In this document: positions 12,252 to 26,949 of the stretch, piece after piece | Layout of the letters: every line of letters starts with the position of its first letter | How positions within the stretch are numbered: the first letter of the stretch is position 1 | Source of the DNA: Candidatus Saccharimonadota bacterium | GTDB taxonomy: Bacteria > Patescibacteriota > Saccharimonadia > Saccharimonadales > Saccharimonadaceae | Assembly: GCA_023898645.1 (NCBI GenBank) | Contig: CP060232.1 | Coordinates: 240,001-272,000 of the forward strand | Length of the DNA stretch: 32,000 nt | Direction of reading: 5' to 3' | Notes under the pieces: model-generated | Told to the model about the DNA's origin: nothing | Database searches by the model: none | What the model saw: the letters and a program-made list of their open reading frames with translations, nothing else | Position numbers and translations under genes: made by a program

Positions 12252-13475
12252 TTACTGAATTTGGTTCGCTAAGTTGGCTATCGGGCCCATTACACTGGCG
12301 GCGATCAAACCGACTGCACCACCCATGATGACGATCATGATTGGTTCTATGATCGAGCTTAGGCTATTGATGGCCTCGTCAACTTCTTCCTCGTAAAATT
12401 CGGCAACCTTAATGAGAACCGTATCTGTCTGGCCGGTTTCTTCACCGACTGCGAGCATTTGTGAAACGATCGCCGGATACAGTCCGCCATCTTCGAGTAC
12501 TCTTGATAGTTGTTGCCCGTTTTTAACTTTGTCGACTGCACTTAGGAGAGATTCTTCATATACGACATTTCCAAGTGCGTGAGCGGTAACCGTCATGGTT
12601 TCAAGTATGGTAACGCCTGCGCCACTAAGAGCCGAAAAAGTTCGTGCAAATCGTGCGACAACGACTTTACGAATAACTCCGTTAATTGCCGGTATTTTGA
12701 GGACGATAGTGTGGAATACTTTTCTACCGGCGGGTGTTTTGATGTATCGCAACAATAATGCGACACCGCCAACAGTGGCGGCGATGACAAATACACCATA
12801 TTGCAACATAAATGAGCTGGTGCCAAGCATGAATAAAGTCAGGGCAGGTAGCTGTGCGCCAGGTCCTGCAAGTGAGCCGATAATCTCGCCGATTTTAGGG
12901 ATGACGAAAAGCATTAAACCAAAGAACGCCAATACGGTAATAACGAGCAGGACCATAGGGTATGTCATTGCTCCCTTTACCTTTTTGCGTATGGTAGCAT
13001 TTTTTTCTTGCTGTAACGCCAATCGTTTTAGGATTTCGTCAAGAATACCGGCAGTTTCGCCAGCTCGCACCATGTTGACATAGACATCGCTAAACGTTTT
13101 AGGGTGTTTTTCAAGAGCGCTACCGAGTGTCGATCCTTCCTCAACTTCGCGGATGACTTCGCTTAAAATTTCTTTTAAAGCAGGGCTTTCCGAATGTTGT
13201 TCAAGTGAATTAAGCGATCTTAGGAGGGGTACGCCAGCTCCAACCATGGCACTTAGTTGTCGAGTGAAGATAACGAGGTCGTCAGACTTAACCTTCGTAG
13301 AATGCGTAAGACTATTGAGAAATGGTGATGATTTTTTTTCTGGAGTTATGCTCAACGGTCGAAGATTTTGCTTTTTCAGGGATTCGATAACAGCGGCTTC
13401 ATCTGCTGCGTCGATGCTGCCTTTTGTTGTCTTGTTCGACCTTTCCGTTGTTGCTACATATTGAAATACAGGCAT
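12252..13475 (-). CDS. pilC: Type IV pilus platform protein PilC (GspF family)
   Basis: 407 aa. Duplicated T2SS-F domains, three TM segments, MVRAGETAGILDEIL and MLAVGEETGQTD repeat motifs. Confidence 0.9.
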   Translation of the reverse strand: MPVFQYVATTERSNKTTKGSIDAADEAAVIESLKKQNLRPLSITPEKKSSPFLNSLTHSTKVKSDDLVIFTRQLSAMVGAGVPLLRSLNSLEQHSESPALKEILSEVIREVEEGSTLGSALEKHPKTFSDVYVNMVRAGETAGILDEILKRLALQQEKNATIRKKVKGAMTYPMVLLVITVLAFFGLMLFVIPKIGEIIGSLAGPGAQLPALTLFMLGTSSFMLQYGVFVIAATVGGVALLLRYIKTPAGRKVFHTIVLKIPAINGVIRKVVVARFARTFSALSGAGVTILETMTVTAHALGNVVYEESLLSAVDKVKNGQQLSRVLEDGGLYPAIVSQMLAVGEETGQTDTVLIKVAEFYEEEVDEAINSLSSIIEPIMIVIMGGAVGLIAASVMGPIANLANQIQ

Positions 13476-20462: not shown

Positions 20463-20602
20463 TTGAAGATAGTTTAGGTGAGTGTGGGAGTGCGGGCAAG
20501 CTTGAGGGGGATGATGTGATGAAAGGACATCGGCTAAAGCCTTTTCCGTTCACTCGCTTAAGAAAATACCTTAGGTGCTTTCTTTCGCTTCGTTCACTAC
20601 AC

Positions 20603-20645
20603 CAAACCTTCGTTCATTTTTGCTGAAGCAAAAATCGAAGGTTTG
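20603..20645. repeat. 43-bp near-perfect palindrome whose outer arms equal the tRNA-Pro T-arm sequence
   Basis: CAAACCTTCG-ttc-ATTTTTGC-tgaa-GCAAAAAT-CGAAGGTTTG. CGAAGGTTTGA is identical to tRNA-Pro positions 48-58 (minus strand, plus-strand coordinates 26892-26902). Confidence 0.6.
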
Positions 20646-20660
20646 AATCTCCGCCACGAA

Positions 20661-20702
20661 CCATAGAAAAACGGCCATCTACAGACGGCCGTTTTTCTAT
20701 GG
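20661..20702. terminator. Bidirectional hairpin, the probable ancestral terminator of tRNA-Pro now separated from it by the island
   Basis: CCATAGAAAAACGGCC-10 nt-GGCCGTTTTTCTATGG has 16-bp arms with A/T runs on both sides. Its right end (TGG) runs directly into TGGTCGG, the complement of the tRNA 3' end CCGACCA. Confidence 0.6.
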
Positions 20703-20706
20703 TCGG
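20700..20706. repeat. Left copy of the 7-bp direct repeat TGGTCGG (candidate att core)
   Basis: Identical to 26874-26880, which is the complement of the 3'-terminal CCGACCA of tRNA-Pro. Confidence 0.5.
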
Positions 20707-20882
20707 CTCGAAGCGACAGTCGTCGAACCTACGATCAAGACAGTTTATATAAGATTTTGCGAAACTATCAGACTTTTAAAGACAGACTGGACAGATTGCA
20801 TCACGTGCTCGATATTGTCGTAAAACCCGAAGGTTTAGATCTCATAAAGTTTACTCCGTAAAAGTAGTATAATATAGGTATT

Positions 20883-21053
20883 ATGAGCGATACGGACGAT
20901 ACCAAAGAAAAAGCTATCATTGAACCGTCACAGGCGGTGGAGTTACCGCCACAACAGTCGGCAACCGATACAAGCAACTGGGATAATAAGGTTTCAACTG
21001 ACCCAAGCGGTGAAAAGTACATACGTACAATAGACGAAGAAGATCTACTTTAA
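20883..21053 (+). CDS. Possible 56-aa acidic, low-complexity protein
   Basis: The ORF MSDTDDTKEKAIIEPSQAVELPPQQSATDTSNWDNKVSTDPSGEKYIRTIDEEDLL is below the track's size cut-off. TATAAT at 20868-20873 lies 9 nt upstream. It competes with an antisense 73-aa ORF. Confidence 0.3.
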   Translation: MSDTDDTKEKAIIEPSQAVELPPQQSATDTSNWDNKVSTDPSGEKYIRTIDEEDLL

Positions 21054-21160
21054 GTCTAGACGCCCCCCTACCTATCAAAGGTGTATTTTTAGAAAAGATA
21101 GTAAACGCACTACTAAGCTAAATTATTGCCGACGAGTAAAAACTGGTTTGTTTCCGTATG

Positions 21161-21212
21161 CCCAACAATAATGGGTGAGAACAGAGGTAAACTTGTTGGG
21201 AAGTCCCAACAA
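21161..21212. promoter_or_regulatory. Three-part 8-mer motif upstream of the OLD gene (possible operator or alternative-pairing element)
   Basis: CCCAACAA (21161-21168), TTGTTGGG (21193-21200) and CCCAACAA (21205-21212). The last two form a perfect 8-4-8 palindrome. Confidence 0.4.
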
Positions 21213-21273
21213 CGATCAAACGAAGTTTAGAGAATTGACAAGTAACCATAACCATTTTGTAAATACTGAATTA

Positions 21274-21282
21274 TGGTATACT
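21274..21282 (+). promoter_or_regulatory. Extended -10 promoter (TGgTATACT) for the OLD gene, probably leaderless
   Basis: TGGTATACT ends 6 nt before the ATG at 21289. The same geometry is seen at many core genes in this window. Confidence 0.45.
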
Positions 21283-21288
21283 TGGCCT

Positions 21289-23223
21289 ATGAAATTAGCA
21301 GAAATAAAAATTAGAGGCTACAAGTCTATAGACGAGCTTGATTTCCCCATACAAAAGTACGGAAAGAGCTACGCCACCATCTTATTGGGTAAAAATGAAA
21401 CAGGTAAAAGCAACGTTCTTGACGCAATTGCAATGACCAAACTGGCGGATAGCAAGGAGGGTGAAACCAGTTTCACGAAAATTAGGAACAGAAAAACCAA
21501 GCCAAGCAAAGTTTCTGTACTGTTTAACTTTTCCGTTGAGACTACCGATGACTATAAGACCGCTCTTATTGAGGCGCCTAATATAGAGTTACCCGATAGT
21601 CTCGTGAACAGCATCAAACTTACCAATATAGTAAAAGAGGCGTACATAAAAGACGGCGATGACAAGTATGGTGTTAGTTTTGATTTTCTCTACGATACAG
21701 TCCCTCGATTGAGCACTTACGGCGTCTTGTTTGCCACAGAACAGGTGCCAGCACAAGCCACAACACCACCTACTCCTGCAAAAACTGTTGAAAAAATCAC
21801 GGTCAAAAAGCTGGCAAGTATCACAGAAAAAGAGGAGGCAGACAAGTACTTAGAATTGAGTGATGATTTACTAAAAGGAATAATTGAAAAAGCACTCGTA
21901 GGCTTCGCAACAAAAAACACCAAAGTGGTTGTAGACAGATGGGAATACGAGCCTAGGTATTTAATCCAAGACAAGATTAAACTAGACGATTTTGTCCAGA
22001 ATGAAGATAATATACCACTTGAGAACATATTTTACCTTGCTGGTTATAAAACATACGATGAAATTGCAAAGGTAATCGAAGAGATAAAAAAAGATGACAA
22101 TGAGAGACGTAGCTTAAGTACAAACTTAACCAAAAAAGCCACTGAGTATTTACATAAAAAGTGGAAAGAACACAAGGTTGATATAGACGTAGAGGTAAGT
22201 ACGGATTACACCGTCAGGGTGACTGTTCAAGATGAAGCTGACACTGGTAACTATTATGATATGATCGACAGAAGCCAAGGCTTTCAGCAGTTTGCTTCAC
22301 TTTTATTTAGTATCTCTATAGGCAGTGCTTCGGGTAGTGTTAAAAATCACGTGATCCTTATTGACGAGCCTGAAGTTCACTTACATCCGTCTGGAGTGAG
22401 ACATATGAGAGATGAGCTATTGAAAATCGGCGAGAGTAATTATCTTTTCGTCTCTACCCATTCCAATTTTATGATAGACGGCAAGCAGAAAGAGCGCCAC
22501 CACCTGCTTACAAAAGGTGACGATAATTCGACTGAAAAAAAGCAAATCAAGACAGAGGAGAACATCAACAATGATGAAGTTCTCGAAACTGCATTCGGGA
22601 TAAACATTATTCTAGATTTTGTATCACCCCACCTATTGCTCGTAGAGGGTGACGACGACAAACAACTACTTGAAAAAGCTCTCAGTGTAGTCAAGCCAGA
22701 TAATGATATAAAGATTAGCAACGGCACAGGTTCTAATATAGTAGCTGATGCTTCTCGGTTAGCCTTCCACGATGTTATACCATTGGTTGTGTCAGACGAC
22801 GATGACGACGGAAGGCAGTATCAAACTGACATACAAAAAATCGGTAAGAATGACTTTAAAAACAAAGCCTTTACGCTCTATGGTTTAACCAGCGACATAG
22901 CAGAAAAGGGTACTATTGAAGATGCAATTCCAATTGGTTTTGTTCAAGACAAGTCTAACGAGGTTCTACACGATAACGGCTTTTCCGACATAGCGCTCGA
23001 CCCCTCCTCTCCGTTTTGCGAGCAAATAAAGTTACACCTTCGAAAAGAGATAAAAGATGTCAGGGGCAAAGCTAAGACGGTTAAAGTTAATAACTTGACT
23101 GCTGTAATTAAAGGTAAGGCTACTGAGTATCCTATAAAAGATATATCGGCTACGACTTCACCTATATTGTTCAAACTAGCAGAAGCAATACTAGCTAAGT
23201 TTGAATTAGCTGACGTCAAATAA
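21289..23223 (+). CDS. OLD-family nuclease (ABC-type ATPase plus Toprim), single-polypeptide (class-1-like) architecture
   Basis: MKLAEIKIRGYKSIDELDF...ILLGKNETGKSNVLDAI (Walker A). QGFQQFASL, VILIDEPEVHLHPSG (Walker B/D-loop), LFVSTHSNFMID (H-loop). C-terminal Toprim with HLLLVEGDDDKQLL and VVSDDDDDGRQ. The start at 21289 removes an unsupported 38-aa GTG extension. Confidence 0.8.
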   Translation: MKLAEIKIRGYKSIDELDFPIQKYGKSYATILLGKNETGKSNVLDAIAMTKLADSKEGETSFTKIRNRKTKPSKVSVLFNFSVETTDDYKTALIEAPNIELPDSLVNSIKLTNIVKEAYIKDGDDKYGVSFDFLYDTVPRLSTYGVLFATEQVPAQATTPPTPAKTVEKITVKKLASITEKEEADKYLELSDDLLKGIIEKALVGFATKNTKVVVDRWEYEPRYLIQDKIKLDDFVQNEDNIPLENIFYLAGYKTYDEIAKVIEEIKKDDNERRSLSTNLTKKATEYLHKKWKEHKVDIDVEVSTDYTVRVTVQDEADTGNYYDMIDRSQGFQQFASLLFSISIGSASGSVKNHVILIDEPEVHLHPSGVRHMRDELLKIGESNYLFVSTHSNFMIDGKQKERHHLLTKGDDNSTEKKQIKTEENINNDEVLETAFGINIILDFVSPHLLLVEGDDDKQLLEKALSVVKPDNDIKISNGTGSNIVADASRLAFHDVIPLVVSDDDDDGRQYQTDIQKIGKNDFKNKAFTLYGLTSDIAEKGTIEDAIPIGFVQDKSNEVLHDNGFSDIALDPSSPFCEQIKLHLRKEIKDVRGKAKTVKVNNLTAVIKGKATEYPIKDISATTSPILFKLAEAILAKFELADVK

Positions 23224-23256
23224 TTACGTCACTTTGATATTGTATTTTACAGACGA

Positions 23257-23484
23257 TTAACGGCCTTGTTCGTTGCGTATGTTCGTATTTGCAAAACCAC
23301 GCTTTGCCATAGCTTCGTCAAAAGTCTTGTCCATATACAACATATCGCCAATCCAGCCGATGAAAAAGTAGTTTGCTGATACACTTCTCCAGAAGGCGCC
23401 CTTGGCGTTGCCTAGATACCAGCGGTTAATCGGCAGTATAAAACTACAGTAGGTTAATGTTTTGTAAGTTTTGCGGTCTTTCAT
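23257..23484 (-). CDS. TM2-domain-like mini membrane protein
   Basis: 75 aa from the ATG at 23484, with AGGA 9 nt upstream. INRWYLGNAKGAFWR...FFIGWIGDMLYMD resembles the hRFYLG...W-x-x-D pattern of TM2 domains (recollection). Confidence 0.45.
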   Translation of the reverse strand: MKDRKTYKTLTYCSFILPINRWYLGNAKGAFWRSVSANYFFIGWIGDMLYMDKTFDEAMAKRGFANTNIRNEQGR

Positions 23485-23527
23485 ATTAGACATTCCTGTT
23501 TAGTTACTATTAACCGTTAGAGTGTCT

Positions 23528-23557
23528 TAAATAAAAAGGGACACCGCCAACGGTGTC
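23528..23557 (-). terminator. Intrinsic terminator at the 3' end of the structured leader (minus strand)
   Basis: The minus-strand RNA reads GACACCG-UUGG-CGGUGUC followed by CCUUUUUAUUU. It lies about 35 nt upstream of the TM2-like start codon. Confidence 0.55.
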
Positions 23558-23676
23558 TAAACTGTTTTTTCCGCAATAAGCTTTCACCTACTGTTTCGGG
23601 CGATGCCCCTTTCTAAGGTGAAATGCCCCGAACGGAAAAACCGACGGTTTCTTATTGCGTATTTTACAGTTTAGAC
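23528..23676 (-). ncRNA. Candidate structured RNA, either a riboswitch-like 5' leader of the TM2-like gene or a stand-alone sRNA (~150 nt)
   Basis: A minus-strand TGcTATAAT places the predicted +1 at 23676, the first base of an 11-bp closing helix (GUCUAAACUGU/ACAGUUUAGAC). A second helix is CGCAAUAAG/CUUAUUGCG. Inner helices are AAACC/GGUUU and UUUCACC/GGUGAAA. UUCGGG/CCCGAA has pseudoknot potential. The element ends in a terminator that shares 3 nt with the closing helix. Confidence 0.45.
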
Positions 23677-23683
23677 AAGGTCT

Positions 23684-23692
23684 ATTATAGCA
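23684..23692 (-). promoter_or_regulatory. Extended -10 promoter (TGcTATAAT on the minus strand) driving the structured RNA
   Basis: Plus-strand ATTATAGCA is the reverse complement of TGCTATAAT. It stands back-to-back with the plus-strand TIR promoters about 35 bp away. Confidence 0.45.
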
Positions 23693-23725
23693 CCGTGTTT
23701 GGTGAAGAAGAATTATTGTATAATA

Positions 23726-23734
23726 TGTTATAAT
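23726..23734 (+). promoter_or_regulatory. Extended -10 promoter (TGtTATAAT) for the TIR operon; a second TATAAT lies at 23719-23724
   Basis: There are tandem TATAAT boxes. A CTAGACTAGA direct repeat follows. The leader carries a GGGAAGGA RBS before the ATG at 23780. Confidence 0.45.
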
Positions 23735-23779
23735 CTAGACTAGACCTTATCTGTAAAAACACAGATGGGAAGGATAAAA

Positions 23780-24364
23780 ATGACGCAGTTTGATGAGCTA
23801 TATAAGGCTTTATACGGAGCCAATCCACCCCAAAAGAAGCCTGTACCGTCGGCTAGCTTGTCTGCGTTTTTGCGTCCCGTACAGCCAGCGCCCCGAGTTA
23901 ACACGGGGTTTTTAGGTTCACAACAAAAACCCCTTGTTAAGTTCAGAAAGCCAAAGGTTTTTGTTAGTTTTGACTATGAGCACGACCGTATATACAAACA
24001 AGCTCTTGATATGTGGGATGCAAATAAGCGTTTCGATTTTACGTTTCAAAGCCACACCCCAAATGAAATACAATCCTTCAACGTGGGTCGCATAAAAGCC
24101 GTTCTTACAACCAAAGTCAAAGAAGCTACCCACGTTATTGTGCTAGTCGGCAAATATGCCAATCAGGTGCACCCCGACACGAAGCTTATAGGTTTTCGAA
24201 ACTGGATAAACTTTGAAGTTTATCAAGCCAGACTTTATAAGAAGAAGATCATCTGTGTAATGCTAGATAACAACAACACGTTACCCGAGTGGTTAGTGAA
24301 CTCTGGTGCAACTCTGGTGAGGAGTTTCAATGAAAAAGACATAATAGAGGCACTTAAAAAATAA
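23780..24364 (+). CDS. ThsB-like TIR-domain protein (DUF1863 / PF08937-type) with a roughly 60-aa low-complexity N-terminal extension
   Basis: KVFVSFDYEHDRIYKQAL (the first TIR strand motif), THVIVLVGKYANQ, and RNWINFEVYQARLYKKKIICVML. The last contains the W-x-x-x-E helix with the conserved Glu, followed by a K-x-I-I-x-V strand. I chose the ATG at 23780 because of the GGGAAGGA RBS. Confidence 0.75.
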   Translation: MTQFDELYKALYGANPPQKKPVPSASLSAFLRPVQPAPRVNTGFLGSQQKPLVKFRKPKVFVSFDYEHDRIYKQALDMWDANKRFDFTFQSHTPNEIQSFNVGRIKAVLTTKVKEATHVIVLVGKYANQVHPDTKLIGFRNWINFEVYQARLYKKKIICVMLDNNNTLPEWLVNSGATLVRSFNEKDIIEALKK

Positions 24365-24373
24365 CTTTTTATT

Positions 24374-25003
24374 ATGACTAAATTATCAGAAGACACAAAG
24401 CTATCCGTACTAAGTGAACACTATAACAACACTGTTGATGGCTTTAAGAAACTTGGCAAGTCAAGAGAGTGGAACTTTACTGCAATACTTCTATTGCTCG
24501 TTGTAATGGCTTTCCAGTACGTATCACCAGATCAGTCGGAAAGCGTACTTACCCAACTTGTTCAGAAACAACTCGGCGTAGACGTAAGCATTAGCATTAG
24601 AGTGATTGGATCGCTTGTCTGGTTTGCTTTATTGTATGTTGCGATTAGGTACTTTCAGAGTGTTATTAACATTGAAAAACAGTATAACTATACCCACCAG
24701 TTAGAGAAAGAACTGGCGAAGAGTTATAAGGGTAAAGCGTTTACTCGTGAGGGTAAGGCATATCTCAATAACTATGCAATTTTCTCTGACTGGGTACATA
24801 TTGTTTATTGGTATATTTTCCCAGCACTTTTCCTGCTAGCTATTACCGCAAAAATTGCAGGCGAATGGCTTGTTGACGCCTCTAACTTAACTTCCGTACT
24901 TCTAAATACGCTAATTTACGTATCTCTCTTTTTATCAACAATTTTGTACGTATACTCTTTACATAAAACAAAGAAGAACACTGAAAAGGACTTACGACAG
25001 TAG
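24374..25003 (+). CDS. 4-TM membrane protein of unknown family, co-operonic with the TIR gene (candidate effector)
   Basis: 209 aa, starting 9 nt after the TIR stop. Soluble N-terminal helix. TM1 FTAILLLLVVMAF and TM2 IRVIGSLVWFALLYVAI. A charged helix follows (EKQYNYTHQLEKELAKSY). TM3 VHIVYWYIFPALFLLAI and TM4 LLNTLIYVSLFLSTILYVY. No enzymatic or known ligand-binding motif was recognised. Confidence 0.6.
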   Translation: MTKLSEDTKLSVLSEHYNNTVDGFKKLGKSREWNFTAILLLLVVMAFQYVSPDQSESVLTQLVQKQLGVDVSISIRVIGSLVWFALLYVAIRYFQSVINIEKQYNYTHQLEKELAKSYKGKAFTREGKAYLNNYAIFSDWVHIVYWYIFPALFLLAITAKIAGEWLVDASNLTSVLLNTLIYVSLFLSTILYVYSLHKTKKNTEKDLRQ

Positions 25004-25073
25004 ACTTTGACATAGGCTTCATCATATACCACAAAACAGTTGAACCTAGACACAAGGTATAATGGTAGAAAAT

Positions 25074-26885
25074 ATGGCTACAGATGATAAAAAAGCTAAA
25101 CCCTACGCGAGACAAGAGCTCACACCTCTTAGTGATGAGCAATTAAAACAAGCGGAGCAAGTTGTTGCAGAGAGCCTTAAAGACAACCCTGAGCTATTTA
25201 ACCTGCCTGATACCAAATACACCGTCGATAGCCTTGTAGACTTCTTTGTACAGTCCCTAGAAGGTAGTAGAAAGATATTACCCAAAGAAAAAAGACGATA
25301 TGTTATTTACCTACGTAAATCTACAGACGATGAAAGAAAACAAGTGAGGTCTATCGAAGACCAACGGAAAGAGTGCTTAGATCTAGCAAAGAGGCTTGAT
25401 ATAAAAGTTAGACCAGAGGATATTTTCGATGAACGGTGGTCGGCTAAAACCTCTGGTAAACGTGACATTTTCAACGCTATGATGAACGGTTTTGAGATTG
25501 GCAAATACCACGGTTTAATCTCGTGGTCACCTGATCGTTTATCACGAAATATGTTAGAGGGTGGACAGATTATCGAACACGTCGACCACGAAAAGATACA
25601 GGATCTGCTGTTTTGCACCTACGCCTTCGATAACACCCCAAATGGCAAGATGATGCTAGGCATCTTGTTTGCCACATCGAAGCAATATAGCGATAAGCTA
25701 GCCGTAGATGTTGCACGAGGTATTACGGGTGCTATTCACGAGGGAAAGTATGTCGGACTTGTTAAAAAAGGCTACTATGCAGATATTGACACAGGTAGGT
25801 TTATGCCAGATGGCGTGCACTGGCAACTATTACGCCAAGCCGTTGCAATGAGGCTCAAAGACGGCAGAACAAACCAAGAGGTAGCGGATTTTCTCAATGC
25901 CTCAAACTTTAGTTTTCGTAAGAGCCAAGATGACACGTATAAAAAAGCAAAGATGGACAAGAAGACGGTCGCTACAATATTCACTGACCCGTTTTATACA
26001 GGTGCTTACAAGTACGGTGACAATATAACCAACCTGAACGATACTTACAACTTTCTACCCCTTATGACACCAGACGAGTTTATTGCTCTAAGTCGCAATA
26101 TGTCCGACAGCTTTAACGCAAAGTTTGTTGGTCGCAATAATGTTTCCAAAAGGCTTGAGTTTGGCTTACTGAGAGAGAAAGTGATCTGTGACTATTGTAG
26201 TAAGATTATGACCTTTCAGCGTACCCAAATCAAACGTGGTAAAAATGCTGGTAGCTGGCAATTAACGTACTACTGTCGCAACAAAGATTGCGTACGTCAT
26301 AATGACGAAGAGGCGATAAGAAAGTACGGCAAAAAACTAGCTAGAAGCGTTAGTGCTAGGTTTATTACGGCACATATCGAATGGACGCTACGCCATATGA
26401 CCGCTAATATCCTTGAGGCTCATAAGCATTATATTAGCCGTATAGAAAAACAAGTGGCGATAGACAAAGAGATAGCAAAACGTAAACTATCAGAGGCTAG
26501 AGCAGAGTTAAAACGCCAAAAAGACAAGTACTCACAGTATCAGAGCTTTCAAGTTGAAGACCCAGAAACATATAAAAAGCACCACGCTGGCAAATTAGAG
26601 TTTCACCAAGCACAGATTAACGCTGTAAACGCTAGCCTCGCTTCTCTGCAAAAAGAGCTAGACGGCTTAAATAAAGCTTTGCCATCTCGTGAAGAGTTTG
26701 TTGAACTCATTAAGTCTTATCTTAAAACTATACTACAGACACGGGATTTGATTGAAGAAGACGCAGTGTATCGTGAGCTAGTGTTGAACCTACGTGCTGG
26801 CGACAACGCCGTATCTGTTATAAAGCTAAATCCACCATACGATATGATGGTGGATTTTAGCAAAAATACTTCTTGGTCGGGGTGA
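25074..26885 (+). CDS. Large serine recombinase (resolvase catalytic domain, recombinase domain, zinc ribbon and coiled coil)
   Basis: YVIYLRKSTDDE (catalytic Ser), SWSPDRLSRN, recombinase domain, CDYCSKIM...YYCRNKDC zinc ribbon, then a long coiled coil. The last four codons and the stop (TGG TCG GGG TGA) lie inside the 3' end of tRNA-Pro. I prefer the ATG at 25074, which is 10 nt after TATAAT at 25058-25063. Confidence 0.9.
   Translation: MATDDKKAKPYARQELTPLSDEQLKQAEQVVAESLKDNPELFNLPDTKYTVDSLVDFFVQSLEGSRKILPKEKRRYVIYLRKSTDDERKQVRSIEDQRKECLDLAKRLDIKVRPEDIFDERWSAKTSGKRDIFNAMMNGFEIGKYHGLISWSPDRLSRNMLEGGQIIEHVDHEKIQDLLFCTYAFDNTPNGKMMLGILFATSKQYSDKLAVDVARGITGAIHEGKYVGLVKKGYYADIDTGRFMPDGVHWQLLRQAVAMRLKDGRTNQEVADFLNASNFSFRKSQDDTYKKAKMDKKTVATIFTDPFYTGAYKYGDNITNLNDTYNFLPLMTPDEFIALSRNMSDSFNAKFVGRNNVSKRLEFGLLREKVICDYCSKIMTFQRTQIKRGKNAGSWQLTYYCRNKDCVRHNDEEAIRKYGKKLARSVSARFITAHIEWTLRHMTANILEAHKHYISRIEKQVAIDKEIAKRKLSEARAELKRQKDKYSQYQSFQVEDPETYKKHHAGKLEFHQAQINAVNASLASLQKELDGLNKALPSREEFVELIKSYLKTILQTRDLIEEDAVYRELVLNLRAGDNAVSVIKLNPPYDMMVDFSKNTSWSG
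26874..26880. repeat. Right copy of the 7-bp direct repeat TGGTCGG (candidate att core, the tRNA 3' end)
   Basis: Complement of CCGACCA (tRNA positions 70-76). Identical to 20700-20706. Confidence 0.5.
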
Positions 26886-26949
26886 AAGGACTCAAACCTT
26901 CGACCTCTCGGTCCCAAACCGAGCGCGCTATCAACTGCGCCACACCCCG
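26874..26949 (-). tRNA. tRNA-Pro (anticodon UGG), 76 nt, CCA encoded
   Basis: Hand-folded cloverleaf. Acceptor CGGGGUG/CACCCCG, D stem GCGC/GCGC, anticodon stem CUCGG/CCGAG with loop UUUGGGA, variable loop AGGUC, T stem GAAGG/CCUUU, discriminator A, CCA. Confidence 0.93.

Follow-up and report, generated by a model that had tools for sequence, protein, structure and literature searches.

The 32,000-nt stretch of DNA analysed here (contig CP060232.1 of a Candidatus Saccharimonadota bacterium, positions 240,001 to 272,000 of the forward strand; referred to as the window, in whose numbering all coordinates are given) contains on its minus strand an RNA element of about 150 nt (23676 to approximately 23531) that lies between an extended -10 promoter box and a 75-amino acid (aa) TM2-like open reading frame (ORF), and that ends in an intrinsic terminator. 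It belongs to a widespread and strongly covarying family in Saccharibacteria, a cis-regulatory RNA module that appears to drive genes for membrane proteins of the moron and superinfection-exclusion types, and its members reside on integrative elements and in phages of Candidatus Saccharibacteria. We consider it almost certain that the family and its structure are real. The dominant conserved interaction is a long-range helix, here called a:c, in which a hairpin loop binds the loop and 3′ strand of the terminator together with the U-run. Comparison of the members leads us to favour, with moderate confidence, the interpretation that these RNAs are cis-acting 5′ leaders that act as transcription attenuators, with a:c and the terminator stem (b:c) as the alternative pairings.

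The coordinates of the parts were recomputed exactly from the window sequence, and all of the parts lie on the minus strand. The extended -10 box, TGcTATAAT (23684 to 23692), is read directly in the sequence and predicts a transcription start at G1 (23676), the first base of P1. This helix of 11 bp joins nt 1–11 (GUCUAAACUGU, 23666 to 23676) to nt 112–122 (ACAGUUUAGAC, 23555 to 23565), and within it the 9 bp of P2 join nt 18–26 (CGCAAUAAG, 23651 to 23659) to nt 97–105 (CUUAUUGCG, 23572 to 23580). P3, with the sequence UUUCACC(U)/(A)GGUGAAA, joins nt 54–61 (UUUCACCU, 23616 to 23623) to nt 88–95 (AGGUGAAA, 23582 to 23589) and encloses a 26-nt loop. Between the 5′ strands of P2 and P3 is a variable peripheral hairpin region, P2a (23628 to 23650), which in the window can adopt either AAACC-GUC-GGUUU or CCG.CGG/CCG..CGG; every member has a hairpin here, of differing sequence, length and register. 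The 5′ part of the P3 loop is the purine-rich segment a (nt 62–78, UAGAAAGGGGCAUCGCC, 23599 to 23615), the putative antiterminator strand, which begins right after the P3 5′ strand, and the remainder is an A-rich 3′ linker (nt 79–87, CGAAACAGU, 23590 to 23598) whose consensus aAaCA constitutes the only conserved nucleotides outside all of the supported helices. The terminator, GACACCG-UUGG-CGGUGUC plus CCUUUUUAUUU (23531 to 23557), is evident from the sequence and from a terminator scan, and has a 7-bp stem at 23557 to 23540 with five G-C pairs, followed by CCUUUUUAUU. Its 5′ strand is segment b (GACACCG, 23551 to 23557), in which ACACC is nearly invariant throughout the family and of which GAC is also the end of the P1 3′ strand; segment c (GGCGGUGUCCCUUUUUA, 23532 to 23548) comprises the 3′ strand of the terminator, two nucleotides of its loop and the U-run, and can pair with either b or a. 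Past the terminator, folds of individual sequences predict that segment d (AGACACUCU, 23519 to 23527) forms a hairpin with segment e (AGGAAUGUCU, 23488 to 23497), the Shine-Dalgarno region, which is also placed by alignment, and the regulated ORF for a 75-aa small membrane protein follows (23257 to 23484, beginning MKDRKTYK). The 152-nt RNA has a predicted minimum free energy of -53.9 kcal/mol (z = -4.95 relative to dinucleotide shuffles), and none of 200 shuffles folds as well. Reading of the window RNA revealed no AUG that could start a leader peptide.

Much of this layout had been proposed in an earlier reading of the window made from its letters only (the sequence-only reading). The promoter and its start site, the 11-bp closing helix, the 9-bp second helix, the UUUCACC/GGUGAAA helix and the terminator that shares GAC with the closing helix are all present as it described, and so is the general arrangement of a promoter-proximal, multi-helix leader with a terminator as its expression platform. 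It also noted a TM2-like ORF downstream, and there is indeed an ORF on the same strand, although the conserved start codon is the ATG at 23484, 46 nt past the U-run, and not 23493. Other elements fared less well. The AAACC-GUC-GGUUU hairpin is present in the window but is otherwise restricted to close relatives, in keeping with the variability of P2a, and a GGGC-AUC-GCCC hairpin and a repeated GGGGCAU occur in the window but are not conserved, being absent outside the main subtype or the window. A pseudoknot suggested between UUCGGG and CCCGAA is no better than expected in the window when compared with shuffles (p = 0.14), and reaches p ≤ 0.05 in only about 21% of 81 members; as a family feature it was rejected, the significant members coming mostly from one subtype (L021/L026/L005, where L numbers designate individual loci) that has a different a:c′ pairing. 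The a:c helix was not part of that reading.

The RNA matches no family in Rfam 15, including c-di-GMP-I/II, ZTP, NAD+, guanidine I–IV, fluoride, preQ1, PRPP/ppGpp and C4 antisense RNA, which agrees with the earlier failure to place it in any known riboswitch class. Scanning the whole window at gathering thresholds returned only a tRNA-Pro, a permissive scan of 23400 to 23800 (E up to 10) returned only matches at chance level (the best, at E = 0.3, on the opposite strand), and eight homologous loci yielded only tRNAs. Literature searches found no description of such an RNA in Saccharibacteria or Patescibacteria, nor of native regulatory RNAs of any kind in Saccharibacteria, and the family is apparently uncatalogued.

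Homologues of the 75-aa protein led to 55 genome loci, among which approximately 150 nt upstream of the ORF are conserved as judged by blastn and by visual inspection. A covariance model built from 16 close members places the RNA upstream of the ORF and on the same strand in 51 of the 55 Saccharibacteria genome loci, and gives the window a score of 180 bits versus 35 bits for its reverse complement. Some 45 further members were recovered by scanning metagenomes with a pattern describing only the RNA, followed by a check with the covariance model. Every subtype folds individually into one architecture consisting of P1, P2, P2a, P3 and the terminator. Two copies are degenerate, and both are followed by an intact TM2-like ORF: one (L029, 2340 to 2475) has lost the core of segment a through a deletion, and the other (L014, 2882 to 2960) retains only its 3′ half with the P2 3′ strand, the P1 3′ strand and the terminator. 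Three other candidate signals were discarded. A weak model match with a repeat at 12744 to 12797, considered as a second copy in the window, is a chance similarity within coding sequence; an exact-motif scan of viral contigs with GGGGCATCGCCCGAAAC gave two matches, both by chance and also within coding sequence; and a GGTTCAAC...GTATAT motif that is conserved ahead of several loci seems to belong to the divergent recombinase gene, as its 5′ end or N-terminal coding region, and not to an RNA element.

Compensatory change among the homologues, which the sequence-only reading had proposed as a check, supports all three helices. Among 31 genome members, P1 is 99.4% paired with compensatory changes in 9 of its 11 pairs, P2 is 95% paired with changes in 7 of 9, and P3 is 95.6% paired with changes in 7 of 8; the full ranges obtained are 98.8–99.4% for P1, 94–95% for P2 (7–9 of 9 pairs covarying) and 93–96% for P3 (7–8 of 8). 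When 45 diverse members are taken together, including the metagenomic subtypes, 93.5% of the cells are paired (versus 68% in shuffles and 33–45% in slid registers) and 33 of the 37 pairs show double changes, values that none of 500 shuffles reaches. The same 45 members reveal which sequences are conserved outside P1–P3, namely a (AAA.GGGCAYC), b (ACACC), c (GGUGUCC and the following Us) and the aAaCA linker. Nucleotides in the junctions J1/2, J2/2a, J2a/3 and J2/1 are not conserved, and the a:c and b:c pairings between them explain almost every conserved base.

There are several lines of evidence for the a:c helix. First, when a plain MAFFT alignment of 25 members is folded with RNAalifold, the consensus is not P1–P3 but a 15-bp long-range helix between a and c, which in the window extends to 17 contiguous pairs (23615 to 23599 with 23548 to 23532). 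On this alignment the helix is 97.8% paired, with double changes in 9 of 15 pairs; slid registers are only 47–68% paired, and none of 500 shuffles equals the observed values. Second, taking a and c in a fixed register from all of the members gives 50 distinct combinations, in which the core 14 pairs hold and 13 pairs show double changes, again not reached in any of 500 shuffles. One position, for example, is CG in 23 combinations, UA in 17, GC in 4 and AU in 2, and another is GC in 24, CG in 12 and AU in 9. Third, the heaviest covariation is between a-columns 14–16 and c-columns 35–33, and two of these column pairs (15/34 and 16/33) involve nucleotides of the terminator loop; as two to three of the covarying positions of c lie in that loop, the covariation of a:c is not a by-product of the terminator stem. 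Finally, some G-U pairs are themselves conserved (GU in 36 of the 50 combinations at one position and UG in 23 of the 50 at another), indicating that selection acts on the RNA of the minus strand.

The a:c pairing is also strong. An uninterrupted duplex of 10–19 bp is present in nearly all of 84 unique members, and it is more stable than the terminator hairpin in all 81 members compared (medians -23.1 versus -9.7 kcal/mol; -27.2 versus -11.1 kcal/mol in the window). The extent of compensatory change, together with a stability above that of the terminator hairpin, argues that a:c is a pseudoknot of the antiterminator type, and because strand c is shared, a:c and b:c would be mutually exclusive. 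Segment a of the main subtype follows the P3 5′ strand without a gap, and the pairing runs through the U-run up to P3. Members of the L021/L026/L005 subtype have in addition an upstream mimic of c of 9–10 nt (ACGGUGUCC, overlapping the P3 5′ strand) that pairs with a, so that three pairings compete: a with the mimic, a with c, and b with c. A variant from oral and human-associated Saccharibacteria (L040–L050, L053 and L056; for example L046, 2682 to 3000) retains P1–P3 and a 12-bp a:c helix (AGAGCAUCCGCU/GGCGGGUGCUCU).

Of 83 members, 72 carry a -10-like hexamer that precedes G1 by 4–9 nt (mostly 6–7 nt), and the TG extension is present in 54 of the 72; a run of at least four Ts follows the hairpin in 74 of the 83. 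An ORF of at least 40 aa is present downstream on the same strand in all 82 instances, and in 73 of these its start is no more than 54 nt from the end of the model match (the median is about 40 nt), which leaves no room for a separate ORF promoter. For 22 leaders folded one at a time, most predictions have the Shine-Dalgarno region (AGGAGUGUC-like) largely or fully paired with a GACACUC-like segment just past the U-run, and z is below -1.8 in 18 of the 22; RNAalifold had returned no consensus around the Shine-Dalgarno sequence, probably as a result of alignment problems.

Homologues of the 75-aa protein form 94 clusters, most of them likewise 75 aa long and starting with MKDRK, and come nearly all from Candidatus Saccharibacteria; a C-terminal motif, DKTFDEAMAKRGF, is conserved. 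Any relationship to TM2 proteins would be distant. The window protein has no Pfam match, including to TM2 (PF05154), at E up to 10, 11 of 26 homologues match TM2 weakly (the best at 9.7e-05), and in one source a homologue is named 'TM2 domain-containing membrane protein YozV'. In an alignment of the family (alignment A1) the C-terminal motif appears as a near-invariant (Y)MDKTFDEAMAKRGF.NT.IRN that follows a TM2-like hydrophobic hairpin.

In the mechanism that we favour, the promoter would start the transcript at G1, the first base of P1, and the leader folds into P1, P2, P2a and P3 and presents segment a in the P3 loop. This pre-folded loop could then capture c as it emerges from the polymerase, the complementary terminator-loop nucleotides emerging first, and full formation of P1 would help the capture by holding the GAC of b. 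With c captured, the terminator hairpin would be blocked and transcription would read into the ORF; with a masked, either by the upstream c mimic that is found in some subtypes or by a trans factor, b:c would form and an RNA of about 147 nt would be released. The released RNA could refold with its 3′ U-tail paired to a and stacked on P3, leaving both ends base-paired, and the d:e hairpin would add translational damping. The best reading of the unit as a whole is that it is a portable promoter–leader–terminator module for moron-like genes encoding membrane or exported proteins. As to the trigger, a macromolecular factor or partitioning by kinetics alone seems to us somewhat more probable than a small metabolite; the lack of conservation in the junctions and the heterogeneity of the mobile-element genes both lower the likelihood of a metabolite ligand.

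Several observations weigh against this interpretation. Termination and read-through are both inferred from sequence only, and the alignments used for P1–P3 were fitted to the structure of the model, although the distinct pair types found at individual positions leave little doubt of these helices. Coexistence of a:c with P1–P3, if sterically possible, requires a pseudoknot in which a 17-bp helix lies within a 26-nt loop that is closed by a 9-nt linker. The a:c pairing continues into the U-run, an extension that antitermination does not need, and a structural role in protecting the 3′ end fits equally well. With a:c more stable than b:c in every member, the terminator would never form at equilibrium, and the choice between them must be under kinetic control or depend on a factor that masks a. 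Lastly, the oral variant has no U-run after the hairpin and has about 158 nt of additional sequence before the ORF, including a TATAAT-like box, such that the read-out there cannot be simple intrinsic termination.

Would a classical riboswitch explain the data better? The P2/P2a/P3 three-way junction and the P3 loop would then bind a small molecule or ion, perhaps a global signal such as a second messenger, and binding would decide whether a is free for c. Two features of the family are those expected, a covarying domain in a 5′ leader with a complex multi-helix fold and a platform of mutually exclusive terminator and antiterminator pairings, and the unpaired A-rich motif in the P3 loop is conserved; in one subtype the c mimic competes with P3 and could create a three-state switch. 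Heterogeneous regulons of membrane proteins are also typical of second-messenger riboswitches. Conserved nucleotides that might form a ligand pocket, however, are not found, the junction and joining positions varying across subtypes and a:c together with b:c explaining nearly all of the conserved bases. No Rfam class is matched and no ligand suggests itself. The genes that follow the RNA are mobile-element morons that share a membrane or exported location and their mobile-element context, with no evident common pathway; we regard a classical riboswitch as unlikely. Similarly tentative is the notion of an orphan class of riboswitch or RNA switch, confined to mobile elements and phages of the candidate phyla radiation (CPR), that would sense a global signal (for instance a second messenger, an ion, or a phage or host factor) through the three-way junction and the P3 loop and toggle the loop-to-terminator pseudoknot, switching on membrane-protein genes or genes of the superinfection-exclusion type; the variable triplet of a:c might in that case also define specificity groups among co-resident elements.

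A rather doubtful alternative is that the terminator is efficient and that the product of interest is a stable RNA of about 147 nt, containing the a:c pseudoknot and acting in trans, for example as an immunity or specificity RNA like P1 C4 or P4 CI or as a protein sponge, with the ORF expressed only by leak-through. Because a:c runs through the U-run exactly to P3, termination would yield an RNA with a buried 3′ end; G1 is paired in P1 in every member, and the RNA is present in phages. Co-resident copies moreover differ in the variable a:c triplet, as is seen for two copies on one contig in L168 (7085 to 7233 and 9413 to 9558), tandem copies about 170 nt apart in L145 (12968 to 13102 and 13273 to 13407, the first without an ORF directly after it), L011 and L039 on one contig, and L007 and L012 in one metagenome-assembled genome. 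These differences could reflect orthogonality between copies or merely independent acquisition, and the four multi-copy cases are statistically not compelling. The only conserved loop sequence, a, is occupied by the RNA's own c, leaving no obvious free seed for a target, and no trans target has been identified; an ORF with a Shine-Dalgarno hairpin and without a promoter of its own follows nearly always, which makes an effect in cis unavoidable. Two further proposals are both extremely improbable. The sequence-only reading had speculated that the RNA senses a nucleotide signal derived from the adjacent TIR gene (23765 to 24364, a match to the ThsB_TIR model), and here the comparative data effectively refute the coupling: the adjacency is confined to the window, tblastn detects no homologue of the TIR protein, nor of its 209-aa companion, in about 175 other fetched loci, and the conserved neighbour is instead a serine recombinase (43 loci), whose gene abuts the RNA promoter in many genomes, suggesting that the TIR pair is inserted cargo. 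If the region instead functioned as DNA, for instance as a palindrome or as a site for recombinase binding or attachment, this would be consistent with the imperfect inverted repeat and with the nearby recombinase gene, and yet it would not account for the strand asymmetry of the signal (the 180 versus 35 bits given above), for the many conserved G-U pairs that are A-C mismatches on the opposite strand, or for covariation that keeps pairing and not sequence; the region is also framed by a fixed promoter and terminator and is located inside the mobile element, not at its boundary.

The attenuator that we favour has much in common with known terminator/antiterminator leaders, including riboswitch platforms, T-boxes and attenuators of the PyrR and LicT types, in that a structured, promoter-proximal leader ends in a terminator just before the ORF, and a conserved alternative pairing excludes the terminator hairpin. 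In those leaders, however, the terminator 5′ strand is usually bound by a neighbouring segment, whereas here the antiterminator strand sits far away in a hairpin loop and binds the terminator's loop, 3′ strand and U-run in a pseudoknot topology, and we know of no precedent for such a pairing as an antiterminator. This family differs from them further in having no known effector, no conserved junction core and no Rfam homology, and in residing in CPR mobile elements and phages. In its loop-to-target logic it resembles the C4 RNA of P1 and P7 and the CI RNA of P4, which are derived from the leaders of phages and elements, carry a loop sequence complementary to a downstream site of the same transcript, with loop and target covarying between elements, and control downstream genes. 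The likeness lies in the covarying loop and downstream target (for a:c, the 13 double-change pairs and 50 variants described above) and is a resemblance of working, not of homology, there being no sequence or structure similarity to C4 and no Rfam C4 match. P1 C4 and P4 CI are processed by RNase P and act in trans, and the outcome of their pairing is a translation block or termination; in this family the pairing would instead remove a terminator, and the predicted 5′ end is the transcription start, which needs no processing.

In gene layout the module is like the 6S leader at lambda PR′–tR′ and the put system of HK022. At these phage or prophage loci a constitutive promoter produces a short terminated leader before a small membrane-protein gene, which in lambda encodes the holin, and expression needs read-through, for which RNA polymerase is modified by the Q protein or by put RNA; what is conserved here is instead a covarying RNA–RNA pairing with the terminator itself. 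Type I toxin mRNAs such as hok, aapA1 and tisB similarly combine a small membrane-protein ORF with a hairpin that sequesters the Shine-Dalgarno sequence, and the order RNA–terminator–ORF resembles the toxI–terminator–toxN order of the type III ToxIN system. Unlike toxin loci, however, there is neither an antisense RNA gene nor an endoribonuclease, and the downstream genes include large exported proteins and not only small toxin-like peptides; a search for type III features found no tandem repeats in 23200 to 23900, and the 75-aa membrane protein has no RNase domain.

Saccharibacteria and other CPR bacteria have tiny genomes and few recognisable regulators. The design proposed here, a hairpin loop that would capture the terminator 3′ strand and U-run, is simple enough to be tested by mutation and compensation, and the module could become a native part for controlling expression in organisms that have no inducible systems. 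It may also provide a practical marker for the mobile-element cargo hot-spots that lie beside serine recombinases. Removal of the link between the RNA and TIR signalling, tempting but unsupported, is a further outcome of the comparison.

Approximately one third of the metagenomic members precede genes other than the TM2-like gene. These encode DUF4352 proteins that match superinfection-exclusion-like families in PHROG, a bPH_2 protein, a 46-aa PHROG 'moron membrane protein', membrane proteins of 76–115 aa, a 150-aa exported protein with a KKWWFW anchor, and a few apparently soluble proteins; the larger products include exported proteins of 267 aa and 440 aa. The KKWWFW-anchored protein of about 150 aa often lies between the RNA and the TM2-like gene, giving a two-gene operon behind the same leader (L026–L031, L035, L059, L102, L103, L135, L139 and L168). 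It has a conserved ...SCSDRLGFDAY... motif and a weak match to superinfection exclusion in PHROG.

The large serine recombinase of the window (607 aa, 25062 to 26885) matches Pfam Resolvase and Recombinase and a PHROG integrase, and its gene ends inside a tRNA-Pro gene (26874 to 26949, minus strand), overlapping the tRNA 3′ end. At the other loci with a homologue the recombinase gene is often divergent from the RNA promoter, about 50–90 nt away from it and beside a tRNA, and the two promoters are back-to-back in L009, L010, L021, L033, L036 and L039. Elsewhere unrelated genes are found between recombinase and RNA, as with the TIR pair in the window, and this interval has the appearance of a hot-spot for cargo insertion, with differing and unrelated ORFs in L003, L011, L012, L015, L018, L022 and L024 and at 23765 to 25003 in the window. 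Two viral contigs from IMG/VR carry the RNA, one of which encodes a terminase, a portal and a major head protein; blastn against GenBank phages gave no match.

The segment of the window from 20600 to 26949 resembles a small integrative island composed of the tRNA-Pro, the serine recombinase and cargo. Besides the ThsB-like TIR protein, the cargo includes a 209-aa multi-pass membrane protein with no family match (24374 to 25003) and a convergent OLD/AriA-like AAA_15 ATPase (21175 to 23223) that recurs in four loci; the TIR pair may represent a Thoeris-like system with an uncharacterised membrane effector. When the tRNA 3′ end was searched for direct repeats that could mark attachment sites, the sole match was one of 10 nt at 20603 to 20612. 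This is a copy of part of the tRNA-Pro T-arm (CAAACCTTCG, also at 26893 to 26902), and an inverted copy at 20636 to 20645 sits in a stretch that resembles a tRNA 3′ end (TCGAAGGTTTGAATCTCCGCCACGAACCA, 20635 to 20663). The region from 20603 to 20702, possibly where the island ends on its far side or else what is left of an attachment site, includes a long perfect palindrome (20661 to 20702) that resembles a bidirectional terminator.

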